A DNA stretch of 38,097 bases from a virus. Its lineage: Duplodnaviria > Heunggongvirae > Uroviricota > Caudoviricetes. The notes under the pieces are model-generated. The model did not search any database and was not told where the DNA came from. It saw only the letters and a program-made list of their open reading frames with translations. Both the position numbers and the translations under genes were made by a program. This document shows, piece by piece, positions 14,862-36,043 of this stretch; the first letter of the stretch is position 1, and each line of letters starts with the position of its first letter. Location: the IMG/VR virus record IMGVR_UViG_2778261087_000005. One strand, 5' to 3'.

Positions 14862-14926
14862 ATAGCATACTTTTCATGTAAATCTGATATCTTCGCCATA
14901 GCTTTGTAGGACGACAAAGAATTAAC

Positions 14927-14958
14927 AGCCTCGCCATCGTGCGGGGCTTTGTTTTTTG
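14927..14958 (+). terminator. Intrinsic terminator about 65 nt downstream of the Q-position gene (tR'-like)
   Basis: 8-bp stem AGCCUCGC/GCGGGGCU with a 6-nt loop, followed by UUGUUUUUUG. Confidence 0.55.
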
Positions 14959-15731: not shown

Positions 15732-16052
15732 ATGCAACGTATGAACCCAACAAATGGACACGATCTGCCGTACTGGTGGTCGGCGGCCTTGGGCCTGTTC
15801 TCTTTGCTTAGCCTGCAGGATTACGTGTTTATTATCGGCGCGCTGGTATCGGCGTTCTTCACGATAAAAACCTATTACGCAAAACGGAAAGAAGAGCGTA
15901 AGCGTATGGCTGAGGAAAGGAAACGAACCCAGCTGCTGGAAAACTACTTATCTGATGTAGGTAAAAAACCTCACTCCGATCGTCCGGCTGCCGCCGAGGT
16001 GGTTACGGAGGCAATGCGGAGAATTTCCGGTGGCACAGTTGAAACTGAGTAA
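15732..16052 (+). CDS. Holin, two-TM class (pinholin-like)
   Basis: 106 aa; dual-start-like MQRM; two hydrophobic segments and a basic C-terminus; SD GGAGGTG; immediately upstream of a SAR endolysin. Confidence 0.7.
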   Translation: MQRMNPTNGHDLPYWWSAALGLFSLLSLQDYVFIIGALVSAFFTIKTYYAKRKEERKRMAEERKRTQLLENYLSDVGKKPHSDRPAAAEVVTEAMRRISGGTVETE

Positions 16053-16560
16053 GAAAAGCGGCGCGGCGGGCATTGTCTGCTCCGTAGGAACGATCATCGC
16101 CATTGTGGTGAATGCGGGCCATGTCAGGACTAACGAGCGCGGGCTAGAGTTAATCGGTAACGCTGAGTCTTGCCTGCGTGATCCATATGTCTGCCCGGCA
16201 GGTGTGCTGACTGACGGTATGGGTAATACGCATGGCGTAAAACTAGGCACCGTTAAGTCTGACCAACAGATCGCAGCCGAGTGGGAGCGCAACATCCTTG
16301 ATGCTGAGTCCTGTGTTAACCGCTACGGGAATGGCAGAAAGCTATCTGACGATACTTTCTCTGCGGCTGTATCGGTAACGTTTCGTGCTGGCTGCGGAAA
16401 CATGCGAACCTCCACGATGTTCTCTCTTCTCAGAAGTGGAGACATCACGGCGGCATGCAACCAGTTCCCTCGCTGGGTATGGGGTGGAGGCAAGGTTCTT
16501 CCTGGTCTGGTCACTCGCGCCGGGAAAGAAAAGTCGCTCTGCCTGGATGGTGTGAAATGA
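16030..16560 (+). CDS. SAR endolysin (phage lysozyme, P21 R-like)
   Basis: N-terminal signal-anchor-release segment ([21 protein letters not shown]); C-terminal region closely resembles P21-type lysozyme ([35 protein letters not shown]); GTG start overlaps the holin end. Confidence 0.85.
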
Positions 16561-16934: not shown

Positions 16935-17112
16935 CCTGACCGCAGACACGCCGATCCCGGGAATGGTGGTTCCGTTCACTTGGCAGGCAAGTCTGGAGTT
17001 AAACGCTCAGCTTTATACGGCGTTGGGGCAGTGCAATCTAGATAAGGCTGGTATAAGGAAAATCGAGAATTCAAGACTTGGTTCACGAATCAGAATTTTG
17101 AAAGCTAACTAA
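16825..17112 (+). CDS. Rz1-like outer-membrane lipoprotein spanin (overlapping Rz in another frame)
   Basis: Starts inside Rz in another frame (TTG 16825 or GTG 16831); signal peptide with lipobox LLTAC; Pro-rich mature region; extends 178 nt past the Rz stop. Confidence 0.5.
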
Positions 17113-17150
17113 CTATAAGTATGATGTTTTCTCCAACATAAGGAGTGAAC

Positions 17151-17420
17151 ATGGAACGTAATAAACTGGTAAGCACTTTAAGATTCGTAAGCGCAAAAAC
17201 AGCAAACTCATTTAAATATGAAATCTATATCGATTTGGATGGTAATCCGCCTTTTGCGGTTCTTTACACGGAAGTGAAGATGGGTACCGATTTAGACCCA
17301 AGAAACTTAGGTGACCGCTATGTTTGGGTGAAGATTGATGGGTATATTCGCCTAAATGGCCCAGACATTGAGCAGTTAGAAAGTGAGTGCGAGACGCATA
17401 TTAAACAGATGCTTGTTTAA
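17151..17420 (+). CDS. Hypothetical 89-aa protein (AT-rich cargo gene after the lysis cassette)
   Basis: ATG 17151 with SD AAGGAG 5 nt upstream; own terminator; shares motifs with the 79-aa protein at 15051. Confidence 0.6.
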   Translation: MERNKLVSTLRFVSAKTANSFKYEIYIDLDGNPPFAVLYTEVKMGTDLDPRNLGDRYVWVKIDGYIRLNGPDIEQLESECETHIKQMLV

Positions 17421-17432
17421 AGCGTAGTAGAT

Positions 17433-17453
17433 GCCGCCTTCGGGCGGTTTTTT
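17433..17453 (+). terminator. Intrinsic terminator
   Basis: CCGCC-uucg-GGCGG hairpin followed by UUUUUU. Confidence 0.7.
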
Positions 17454-17488
17454 ATTGCTATCACCATGAGTAGGCTCATCGTAATGGC

Positions 17489-17538
17489 AATATCCCTTTC
17501 AAGGGATAAACACCTGAATATCCCTTTAAGCGGATAAA
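17489..17538. repeat. Two copies of a 22-bp motif upstream of the terminase genes
   Basis: AATATCCCTTTCAAGGGATAAA (17489-17510, internally palindromic TATCCCTT/AAGGGATA) and AATATCCCTTTAAGCGGATAAA (17517-17538). Confidence 0.5.
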
Positions 17539-17548
17539 GAGGCTCTCA

Positions 17549-17767
17549 ATGTCCGATATCTACCAAATCACGCTAACCACCCAAACAGACGAAACCTTCA
17601 CAGGCAAGATGTCACGACGTCAGCCTGAGTTGGTTAACGGTTTTGTGCCGCTGGCGAACGAGGATGGTGAGTGGCTGTACTTCATTCCAACTGATGTGAA
17701 GCGCATGAGGTTCACGCCAGTACCGGCAGAGCAGACCGAACAGCCAGCAGAACAAACAACGGAGTAA
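17549..17767 (+). CDS. Hypothetical small protein preceding terminase
   Basis: 72-aa ORF with SD AGAGG 6 nt upstream. Confidence 0.5.
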   Translation: MSDIYQITLTTQTDETFTGKMSRRQPELVNGFVPLANEDGEWLYFIPTDVKRMRFTPVPAEQTEQPAEQTTE

Positions 17768-17770
17768 CGA

Positions 17771-18373
17771 ATGAGCAAACCGGACTGGGAGGCCATCGAG
17801 ACGGCGTACCGGGCCGGAGTGATGTCCCTCCGAGAAATAGCATCACAACATGGGATCAGCGAAGGCGCTATCCGCAAGCGTGCCAAGCGTGACGACTGGT
17901 CGCGTGATCTCAATGCTAAGGTGAAAGAACGCGCTGACGATCTGGTACGCAAAGCTGAGGTACGCAAACAGGTACGCAGTGAAGTTACTTTTAACGAGCG
18001 CGTACTCATCGAGGCGACAGCTGAGGTAATTGCCAACGTCCGCATGGAGCATCGCGGCGACATTAAGCGCGCCCGGCAGATAACCAACGCCCTGTTTGAT
18101 GAGTTGGGCGCGGAGTGCGCAGACGTGGCCGCACTGGAGAGGCTCGGAGAGTTGATGTTTAACCCTGACGATAAGGGCCAGGACAAGCTCAATGAGATTT
18201 ACCACAAGGTAATCAGCATGCCTGAGCGCGTTAAGTCCGTTAAGGCACTGAGTGACGCGCTGAAGAATCTAATCGGGCTTGAGCGGCAGGCATACGATAT
18301 TGACGGGCCGGAAGGCGACAACTCTGTTAAGCAACTTTCTGACCTGATGGATTCACTGTCTCAGGGGGCGTAA
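17771..18373 (+). CDS. Terminase small subunit
   Basis: 200 aa; N-terminal HTH (MSLREIASQHGISEGAIRKRAKRDDW); immediately upstream of the large subunit with TAATG overlap. Confidence 0.75.
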   Translation: MSKPDWEAIETAYRAGVMSLREIASQHGISEGAIRKRAKRDDWSRDLNAKVKERADDLVRKAEVRKQVRSEVTFNERVLIEATAEVIANVRMEHRGDIKRARQITNALFDELGAECADVAALERLGELMFNPDDKGQDKLNEIYHKVISMPERVKSVKALSDALKNLIGLERQAYDIDGPEGDNSVKQLSDLMDSLSQGA

Positions 18374-33579: not shown

Positions 33580-36043
33580 GATATCAAATTTTCCAGGAAC
33601 GCCTAAGCTGCGTTGCAGGGTGTCAAACGGCACCCTTTTTTATGATTGGCTGGCGGCCAATGATGGTAACTTTCACCGCGATCTGCTGATCGTCCGCAAC
33701 GGCGTAAAGCTGGGCGAAGATGATGAGCTGGCGTTTGAGCTATGCGAACTGGACACCATCCAGATTTTCGACCAGCCAAAGGGCATTATTGGCGACATTC
33801 TCAGCCCTATTTTCAAAGTTGTCGGCGCGGTCTTCTCGTTCCTTGCTCCCAAGCCGGCGATCGCCAACACAGGCGGCAACACGATTGACTCGCCAAACAA
33901 TAGCCTGACCGGTCAGACGAATACGGCGCGCGTCTACAAAGCAAAGCCGGACATCTACGGGCAAATCCGTTCGTTCCCGGACCTGATTCAGGAATCACTG
34001 TTCGAATACGTGCGCCAGAGCGACACGGATGGCGGCCTGAAGTACGTTACTGAGTGGATGTGCATCGGGATCGGCAAATATGATTACGAGTCTGTGCGTT
34101 ATTCAGAGTCCAGCCTTGGAAGTATGGCCGGAGCAGAGTTCCAGTTTTACCAGCCGGGGGAAGTGATACCCACCATCAACGAAGGGTACGGTTTCGACGA
34201 CGTGGACGGCCAGGAGGTGCCCGGGCAAAACGAATCGGACAATTTCCCGATCGAGACTGCTACGGCCACCACGGTTGTTAGCGGCACATACTCCGGCGGG
34301 CAGATTGCGGTAAAAATTATCAAGCAGGCTGAGTTTGATTACTTCATGGGTCTGGTCCTGCCGCACGCCGTTACTTTTACGATTAACGTCACCTACAGCA
34401 CGCCAACCGGCAACGTAACGCAGGATGTCGATTTCTCCGGCACGCTGATATCGGCTGTCGAAACAAACGACGGCGCGGTGGTTAACCCGGTCCGGTGGTA
34501 CACATTCACGATGGGGGATCTAATTGGCCCTCCTGACGTGCCGGCAACGGCGACTATTAACACGACGAAGTTCATCCTTAACGATAACGAAGCGCTAGTG
34601 GTAGGCCCGTTCTTCTCGCCGGTCGAATCTGCCCAGTTATGGCTGCACACTCAGGTGCAGCTGGGCGGCAAAAAGTCCGCTGACTGGAAGGTCACAATCT
34701 GGAAAATTGACGATGACTACAACCAGGTGCCGGGTACTCAGCAGACGTTCACGTATCACCAGGGGACGCCGCACAAATCATCCAGCGAAGTGTTTTATCG
34801 CACTGACAAGCTGACGCCGACCGGCGGTTTCGGCAAGTACGCTATTAACTTCCAGCGCACAGATAACTCGAGTGATGCCTCTATCCTGAAGGTTGAGGAG
34901 ATCCACTCGGTCAACGTCAGAACCAACGTCGTGCATCCAACCGATACGCTGGTGCGCGTGAAGGTAAGAGCGACAGAGAACGCGCTGGGCAGTCGTGATC
35001 GCAAATACAACGCCCTGGTGACGCGCCAAACCATCAGTTACAACCTGACGACGCAGGCGGTGGATTACACCCTTAGGGCCTCGCGCTCGTTCGCTGATGC
35101 AGTGGCGCATACCTGGCTGATTATGGGCGAGCAGCCGGTAAGTAGCATTGACCTGTACGGACTGTACTCGATTGCCGAAAGTCTGCCGGATGAGCGCCTG
35201 GGTTACTTCGACTACACGTTTGACGACGAGAACGATTCTCTCGGCGACCGCGTGCAGGCGATCTGCAATGCAGCGTCAGTCATTGCGTACTGGGATGACG
35301 GCGTGCTGACTTTTACTCGCGATCAGAAGGTTGATTACCCGGCTGCCGTATTCAACCGGGCCAACATGAAGACGGACGAGTACAAAATGACGTACGAGGC
35401 CACTCTTCCTGGCGGCTACGACGGCGTGCAGGTGTCCTACGTTCATCCAACCACGAACAACAAGACGTACATCAACTACCGCGTGCTGAACGGCGCTATC
35501 GTCGAGCAGGAAGCGGAGAACCCGAACATAATCGAGATAGTCGGATTTCGTAACGAGTATCAGGCGCGGGAACGCGCACTGCGCGAAACGAAGCGCCTTA
35601 TCTACTCCCGGGTGAAGATGAACGCCAAAGTATTTGAGGACGGGATCATGCAGGTCGGTAGCGTCGTGCAGATTGCGGATATCTACGACAGTAACCAGCA
35701 GCAGGGATACATCACCGGCCGCGCCGGGAATAACTTTGATACAAGCGAGCCGATCGCGTTTACCGGCTCGATGTATGTCCTGGTGACCGACAGCCTGGGC
35801 AACCCGACTCTGCGCTATCCGGCGACGACACGCGCCGACACTAAGTACGGATTCACCGCGGCAATACCCGACATTCAACTCAATATCTGGAACGGAGACA
35901 CTGTACAGCTCCCGTCGCGCTACCTCATAGCAACGGTGGAGGAGCTGAACAGCCAGCTATGGACGGTCAACAGCATCAAGCCGAACACAGATAACACGGT
36001 ATCTCTGACCGTCGCGGAATATAGCGACGCCATCTACCCATAA
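33566..36043 (+). CDS. Tail tip / host-specificity protein
   Basis: About 825 aa from ATG 33566, overlapping the upstream stop; position before the tail fibre; domain identity not verified. Confidence 0.6.
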   Translation: MALVEISNFPGTPKLRCRVSNGTLFYDWLAANDGNFHRDLLIVRNGVKLGEDDELAFELCELDTIQIFDQPKGIIGDILSPIFKVVGAVFSFLAPKPAIANTGGNTIDSPNNSLTGQTNTARVYKAKPDIYGQIRSFPDLIQESLFEYVRQSDTDGGLKYVTEWMCIGIGKYDYESVRYSESSLGSMAGAEFQFYQPGEVIPTINEGYGFDDVDGQEVPGQNESDNFPIETATATTVVSGTYSGGQIAVKIIKQAEFDYFMGLVLPHAVTFTINVTYSTPTGNVTQDVDFSGTLISAVETNDGAVVNPVRWYTFTMGDLIGPPDVPATATINTTKFILNDNEALVVGPFFSPVESAQLWLHTQVQLGGKKSADWKVTIWKIDDDYNQVPGTQQTFTYHQGTPHKSSSEVFYRTDKLTPTGGFGKYAINFQRTDNSSDASILKVEEIHSVNVRTNVVHPTDTLVRVKVRATENALGSRDRKYNALVTRQTISYNLTTQAVDYTLRASRSFADAVAHTWLIMGEQPVSSIDLYGLYSIAESLPDERLGYFDYTFDDENDSLGDRVQAICNAASVIAYWDDGVLTFTRDQKVDYPAAVFNRANMKTDEYKMTYEATLPGGYDGVQVSYVHPTTNNKTYINYRVLNGAIVEQEAENPNIIEIVGFRNEYQARERALRETKRLIYSRVKMNAKVFEDGIMQVGSVVQIADIYDSNQQQGYITGRAGNNFDTSEPIAFTGSMYVLVTDSLGNPTLRYPATTRADTKYGFTAAIPDIQLNIWNGDTVQLPSRYLIATVEELNSQLWTVNSIKPNTDNTVSLTVAEYSDAIYP

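Follow-up and report, generated by a model that had tools for sequence, protein, structure and literature searches.

Two short palindromic repeats lie directly in front of the terminase genes of a lambdoid prophage of Escherichia coli, which raises the question of which protein reads them. The window, i.e. the whole stretch of DNA analysed here, has a length of 38,097 nucleotides (IMG/VR record IMGVR_UViG_2778261087_000005). The original prediction, made from the sequence alone, suggested that the repeats could be either a packaging-recognition region or a binding site for a late regulator.

Sequence and geometry of the repeats

A repeat search of the window recovered both copies of the predicted 22-bp motif upstream of the small ORF and TerS. 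Copy 1 is located at 17489-17510 (AATATCCCTTTCAAGGGATAAA) and copy 2 at 17517-17538 (AATATCCCTTTAAGCGGATAAA), with 19 of the 22 bases being shared. The distance of 28 bp originally given between them is correct from start to start and incorrect as a gap, the cores being 10 bp apart. As predicted, copy 1 is internally palindromic, with a perfect 8+8 inverted repeat (TATCCCTT/AAGGGATA); copy 2 is palindromic as well, in its outer five bases (TATCC...GGATA). Each copy contains an 18-bp operator-like core that fits TATCC-N8-GGATA exactly, further called P1 (17491-17508, TATCCCTTTCAAGGGATA) and P2 (17519-17536, TATCCCTTTAAGCGGATA), and a 10-bp spacer lies in between (17509-17518, AACACCTGAA); none of these three elements is assigned to a strand. 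The degenerate consensus first proposed for the motif has zero matches when read literally because it holds one base too many, and the interval first assigned to it (17456-17548) contains both copies but also takes in a separate hairpin (H, 17453-17492).

The exact TATCC-N8-GGATA pattern is found twice in the window against an expectation of 0.03, and two or more occurrences were seen in none of 100 shuffles; the match is not due to chance. No other exact site is present in the 38-kb window, immunity region included, and a single extra site with one mismatch is located at 35692. Since the immunity region has no such site, the phage's own repressors use other operators.

Genomic context

The window is a lambdoid prophage of E. 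coli that matches strain GB089 at 100% identity over positions 17100-17800. It is most closely related to the Enterobacter phages ENT1 and BHUENT3, and in the early region it is similar to HK639. Positions 1-1704 are host flank and mark the left prophage junction; they are 99.9% identical to terminal sequences in several records of E. coli phages, annotated there as sucrose permease and tRNA-Arg. The local order is endolysin (16030-16560), Rz, a moron-like unit, hairpin H, the two palindromes, a 72-aa ORF, TerS, TerL and portal. The moron-like unit (17098-17448) consists of a sigma-70-like promoter (17098-17125, TTGAAA-16-TATGAT), a 91-aa ORF and an intrinsic terminator on the + strand (17433-17456, GCCGCC-TTCG-GGCGGT plus a T run), the latter identified by a terminator scan and by RNA folding. 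Its GC content is 0.37-0.43 compared to 0.53-0.60 in the flanks, and in ENT1 this position is taken by another gene.

Hairpin H is an imperfect hairpin on the + strand, a separate element with 18-nt arms (17453-17470 and 17475-17492) that are 83% complementary and fold as a hairpin. It has no Rfam match. Members of its family adjoin 43 of the 99 distinct phage pairs among the IMG/VR matches listed, and occur without a pair in Salmonella phage Oslo (L341 712-748) and CobraSix (L002 1524-1560). In this family, the stem base CCAT(T)A ... TAATGG is conserved, while the upper stem is variable with changes that look compensatory. Elsewhere, a scan of the whole window at the Rfam gathering threshold returned isrJ (RF01393) alone, with 54.8 bits where 37 is the gathering score; the match (14877-14950, + strand) is located away from the pair and downstream of the region of the Q-like antiterminator.

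On the other side of the palindromes, the Shine-Dalgarno sequence AAGAGG (17537-17542, + strand), as read from the sequence, begins one base past P2, and the GGATAAAGAGG junction is conserved among homologous leaders. It belongs to the 72-aa ORF (17549-17767, + strand), the first gene after the pair, for which phrog_6581 (function unknown) is the sole match. All its homologues, found in Enterobacter, Citrobacter, E. coli, Klebsiella and Salmonella prophages, are named ‘hypothetical’. Pfam, NCBIfam and PADLOC returned no informative family for either the 72-aa or the 91-aa ORF, the 91-aa ORF also having no PHROG match. TerS (17771-18373, + strand; phrog_1206, E = 5.6e-95) follows outside the element and is given for context only. 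The 72-aa ORF precedes at least three unrelated TerS types, with the palindromes either present or absent (L004-L083). Its leaders exist in several forms, five of which (L016, L078, L080, L050 and L027) contain the right half of P2 alone, which puts recombination breakpoints inside the cassette. The commonest leader has a conserved non-coding stretch of approximately 110 nt (…GATCTGTGTAACCCCGCAAGGATGGTGATCACATCTTGCTGACGGGTAAGCCGTAAGTGGCTAAGCACTTCTGAGAAGCAGGGCAACAGCTGCGACAAGGCAAAGAGG), e.g. at about 2366-2500 of L037, which comes after a class-2 H hairpin and has no Rfam match at the gathering threshold.

Similarity to the HipB operators of hipBA

HipBA is the classic persistence toxin-antitoxin module; its operator is structurally well characterised, its biological role is debated and its links to phages are thin. 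HipB recognises the consensus TATCCN8GGATA and represses hipBA through four cooperative operators (PMC3376134, PMC3920265), with a Kd of 0.6 nM for O1O2, of which the oligo sequence is published (PMC3376134). In E. coli, the hip operators are 10, 21 and 10 bp apart (PMC4150777), and the same separations were read in the E. coli hipBA promoter (L204). The hipB-proximal operator of this promoter is AATATCCCCTTAAGCGGATAAA; copy 2 is identical to it at 21 of 22 positions, with one central base differing. The palindromes of L116 are the E. coli hipBA promoter itself.

Both copies in the window have the 18-bp TATCC-N8-GGATA palindrome of a HipB operator, and they lie 10 bp apart, as do adjacent operators, for which the distance is 27-28 bp from start to start. 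Outside the consensus, the base preferences correspond at positions -2, -1, 6, 7 and 8, while position 9 differs somewhat. More specifically, phage orphan sites and hipBA-adjacent operators both have T/A at -1 and -2, C>T>G but no A at position 6, a pyrimidine at position 7 and T at position 8. Based on the consensus, the spacing and the identity of copy 2, the pair in the window reproduces O1-O2 in almost exact sequence. It does not, however, overlap a hipBA promoter directly upstream of hipB-hipA. The window lacks homologues of HipB and HipA, and a promoter scan revealed no sigma-70-like promoter within the cassette; therefore, this is an orphan operator pair and not a hipBA promoter. The TATCC type is not universal among HipB operators, as the Shewanella HipB operator is GTGTA-N6-TACAC (PMC4150777).

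The pair in bacterial genomes

Bacteria were surveyed with one genome per species, the contigs being scanned for the two-site pattern, which resulted in at least 120 loci. Among the matches listed for these species-representative bacteria, hipB and/or hipA homologues directly adjoin the pair in 89 of 120 loci, and the pairs in these 89 are spaced 27 or 28 bp from start to start. The hipBA-adjacent pairs were found in Enterobacterales, Vibrionaceae, Halomonas, Myxococcaceae, Hyphomonadaceae, Chlorobium and Streptomyces, i.e. in several phyla, with the HipB identity at pair-bearing loci falling to 34-40%. Judging from this gene neighbourhood, the two-site pair is a hallmark of HipB.

Species of Enterobacter, Klebsiella, Raoultella, Serratia and Pantoea possess hipBA with these same operators (among the matches listed), and of 5426 complete E. 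coli genomes, 5262 contain hipB together with its operators. At least three genomes among the matches listed contain both a hipBA locus and an orphan pair.

Orphan pairs of the HipB type were also seen on three Aliivibrio chromosomes (L242, L255 and L263), where the flanks resemble one another and no hip gene lies within 8 kb; they may belong to host genes that HipB controls in Vibrionaceae. Two IMG/VR contigs of 64-80 kb (L182 2455-2554 and L197 355-455) contain a hipBA-like module of an Xre-HTH gene and a HipA-kinase gene, followed by a RecA-like gene. Their HipB is 36% identical to that of E. coli, the kinase has HipA_C and Couple_hipA domains, and four to five operators with a 27-bp period are located directly upstream of the Xre-HTH gene. 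Such modules may be a phage- or plasmid-borne source of these operators.

Distribution in phages

The two-site pattern with a gap of 6-14 is present in at least 120 viral stretches of IMG/VR. The same half-sites with a gap of 15-44 were found in only 8 stretches, mostly hipBA-type arrays, and a composition-matched scrambled half-site in 3, showing that the pair is more frequent in phages than expected by chance. Among the matches listed, there are 99 distinct pair sequences, with a start-to-start distance of 28 bp in 69, 27 bp in 28 and two exceptions, and these occur in at least 68 flank contexts that are unrelated to each other. Among temperate enterobacterial phages, the cassette is both widespread and stereotyped. 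The phage pairs are mostly without hip genes and mostly without a promoter, and their usual place is between the lysis and packaging genes. Of the 99 distinct cassettes among the matches listed, 41 are flanked within 3 kb by lysis genes and, on the opposite side, by packaging genes, and 81 have either kind. This junction is also the usual place of accessory DNA in these phages. A hairpin resembling an intrinsic terminator lies within 100 nt of 47 of 91 cassettes, compared to 22% of random positions in the same loci.

The named phages with the cassette include ENT1, BHUENT3, BHUENT6 and the isolated coliphage mEp237. ENT1 has exactly one pair in 48 kb; its TATCC/GGATA half-sites are preserved, whereas the central 8 nt are not those of the window. 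Intact half-sites around a differing centre are the usual signature of a dimeric DNA-binding site. In mEp237, the cassette directly follows the Rz stop codon (L339 1526-1571). This phage has its Rz gene in common with HK225 (L340), and the homology stops exactly at the cassette, HK225 running into a lambda-like cos region from there; the cassette edge is thus a mosaic boundary. The cassette is facultative, as some close relatives have only a single or a degenerate site and others lack it altogether. It is absent from the E. coli K-12 cryptic prophages DLP12, Qin and Rac, and a BLAST search with a cassette from an HNH context gave no match to named phages.

Candidate binding proteins

The suggestion of a regulator-binding site proved right in kind, as the pair is built like two operators for a dimeric HTH protein, and wrong as to a late phage regulator, the best match being the host antitoxin HipB. 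A tblastn search of HipB against 50,697 phage records revealed no homologue in an enterobacterial phage. Given this absence, the near-universal presence of hipB in E. coli and the hipBA loci of other enterobacteria, host HipB is the most economical binder. We consider it probable, from sequence comparison, that the window contains an orphan HipB-type operator pair to which a HipB-family protein binds.

The sites could instead be operators for an Xre/Cro-like regulator with HipB-like specificity, encoded by the phage or by a co-resident prophage and acting on late or accessory genes. The dimeric HTH anatomy would suit such a protein, the fold of HipB itself is Cro/CI-like (PMC3920265), and the location at the start of the packaging operon hints in this direction. 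However, a regulator of this kind has no further site in the 38-kb window, immunity region included, and a HipB-like ORF is lacking in the window, ENT1 and other enterobacterial phages. Moreover, no gene is consistently adjacent across the at least 68 contexts, and a promoter is mostly absent: among the matches listed, a promoter-like overlap is seen for 12 of 92 phage cassettes, compared to 53 of 139 hipBA-adjacent pairs. We consider this explanation unlikely.

Another reading takes the pair as a neutral remnant of a captured hipBA promoter, the toxin-antitoxin genes having been lost and the leftover having spread by recombination of mosaic phages. The near-identity of P2 to E. coli O1 extends to the central bases and flanks, hipBA-like modules with operator arrays do exist on IMG/VR contigs (L182 and L197), and the cassette is facultative, with some degenerate sites and some leaders holding half of P2 alone, which leaves room for this reading. 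A neutral remnant fits less well with a stereotyped two-site unit that keeps its 27- or 28-bp distance in 97 of 99 distinct sequences among the matches listed, with half-sites that stay intact while centres and spacer have diverged, and with extended base preferences that match those of functional operators. In addition, there is no hipB coding remnant in the window, and the flank contexts number at least 68. On this evidence, a neutral origin is improbable.

Packaging sites and other element types

The proposal of a packaging-recognition region bound by TerS is not supported, as the motif is missing from relatives with a related TerS, which is the first of the conditions that had been named for its refutation. 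Such sites would be of the pac or cosB type, possibly bound together with a host bending protein, and they would account for a pair located 230 bp upstream of TerS and for the 41 of 99 cassettes (among the matches listed) between lysis and packaging genes, the usual location of cos or pac. However, among loci with a TerS at least 95% identical to that of the window, two sites are present in L157, L014 and L145, one in L077 and L039, and none in L055, L083 and L075, while the leaders of an unrelated TerS (approximately 40% identity) likewise have two, one or no sites. The co-variation with the cognate TerS that characterises a terminase recognition site is therefore not seen, and since the number of sites is independent of TerS identity, the pac-site reading fails. 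Among phages with a related TerS, HK639 has no site in its whole genome and Klebsiella phage 2b LV-2017 has none between the lysis genes and TerL. Other positions of the cassette are upstream of HNH endonuclease genes in systems with a P27-type terminase, behind Rz genes and next to genes for the tail, and its distance to TerS ranges from approximately 0.2 kb to more than 1 kb. A role in packaging is thus very improbable, and annotators should not take every repeat upstream of a terminase gene for a pac site.

Equally remote is the idea that the palindromes act as RNA or single-stranded DNA hairpins in the late transcript, e.g. in processing, stability or termination. The region does fold strongly as RNA (-42.2 kcal/mol, z = -3.5), with the terminator and hairpin H adjacent, but this fold is good because the region is palindromic, and it is the sequence that is conserved rather than the pairing. 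Watson-Crick pairs at the four central position pairs were observed in 58, 67, 56 and 34 of 130 distinct sites, compared to 48, 61, 50 and 34 after shuffling. As this complementarity is at the shuffled expectation, the sites are better seen as protein sites in duplex DNA than as hairpins. The hairpin reading was dropped, since no compensatory changes that keep the pairing were found in the 130 distinct sites despite the good fold; Rfam has no match for the pair either, a search of 17000-18000 at a permissive E-value giving a spurious mir-205 match alone.

Other known element types were rejected as well: DnaA boxes (TTATCCACA) because the CACA of the DnaA box is missing, IHF, Fur and H-NS sites because the conserved bases or the architecture do not fit (ATCAA-N4-TTR is absent), and lambda O iterons because there are two sites instead of four, located outside the O gene and intergenic in the late operon.

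Possible role of the operator pair

If HipB binds, two host HipB dimers, alone or as HipA2HipB2, would occupy the pair cooperatively and bend the DNA. HipA is reportedly able to dimerise across adjacent operators. Operator DNA slows the degradation of HipB by Lon, resulting in a half-life above 200 min (PMC3376134), and HipA is held inactive on HipB-DNA (PMC3920265). By being amplified, the phage DNA could thus hold the toxin in a neutralised state during induction. In the mechanism that we prefer, the replicating phage DNA would be a sink on which HipB is kept DNA-bound and protected from Lon, so that HipA would stay in the inactive complex and its kinase would not be released during induction or infection. 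HipA-family kinases are validated in phage defence (PMC13092281), while an anti-phage role of canonical HipBA itself is not established. An operator mimic of this kind, in which an amplified O1-O2-type pair titrates HipB and HipA-HipB, shields HipB from Lon and thereby keeps HipA from being released, is conceivable from the sequences but doubtful. With a single pair per genome, the sink would be small without amplification of the phage DNA.

A nearly equal alternative is that bound HipB would separate the moron and lysis units from the packaging genes, as a roadblock or insulator. The positional bias (41 of 99 cassettes) and the nearby terminators (47 of 91) fit such a transcriptional role at least as well as the sink. 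The facultative occurrence of the cassette suits an accessory function. In a variant of the operator-mimic idea, the phage would read the level of host HipB, and hence the dormancy state, to gate the expression of its packaging genes. Either specific role, be it sink or roadblock, can be put forward tentatively at most.

In full-text literature searches, no description of HipB boxes in phages was found, and the operator pair is pointing to a previously undescribed link between temperate phages and host HipBA. As more than a hundred genomes of temperate phages have the stand-alone pair, among them mEp237 and those of Enterobacter phages, the interaction between phages and HipBA becomes directly testable. 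If HipB binds, these phages would either use a host antitoxin as regulator or neutralise a kinase toxin with decoy DNA, both of which would be new.

Comparison with known systems

Like O1-O2 of E. coli K-12 hipBA, the pair in the window has an 18-bp palindrome, a 10-bp gap, A/T flanks and pyrimidines at positions 6-7. It differs in having two operators instead of four, no overlapping -35/-10, no hipB or hipA, and a location in a prophage late region. HipB boxes outside hipBA are mentioned for the relA, eutH and fadH promoters of E. coli (Lin et al. 2013, as cited in PMC10305079). As far as they are described in the citing paper, these boxes are likewise consensus sites away from hipBA, indicating that HipB is able to act outside its own operon; they lie in host gene promoters, whereas the window has a promoter-less pair with O1-O2 spacing in phage DNA.

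As in lambda cosB and SPP1 pacL, short repeated sites of a protein-binding type are located just upstream of the small-terminase gene. In lambda cosB, R sites are combined with an IHF site, and in SPP1 the pacL boxes overlap the terminase promoter. Both co-vary with their own TerS, unlike the cassette of the window. Lambda-type origin iterons, of which approximately four lie inside the O gene beside an A/T-rich stretch and are bound by the O protein, are ATCCC...GGGAT palindromes with a period of approximately 23-24 bp. The pair resembles them in being repeated palindromes of approximately 18-19 bp, comparable to those with ATCCC/GGGAT arms, but the spacing of the arms is different and the window has no such array.

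Known phage counter-measures against toxin-antitoxin systems are T4 Dmd, the pseudo-ToxI RNA mimics and the inhibition of Lon by T7 Gp4.5. If the sink model is right, the pair would have the same outcome, with a host toxin being kept neutralised during phage growth. Unlike these proteins and RNAs, it would be a non-coding DNA operator mimic and, to our knowledge, the first DNA-based counter-measure against a toxin-antitoxin system.
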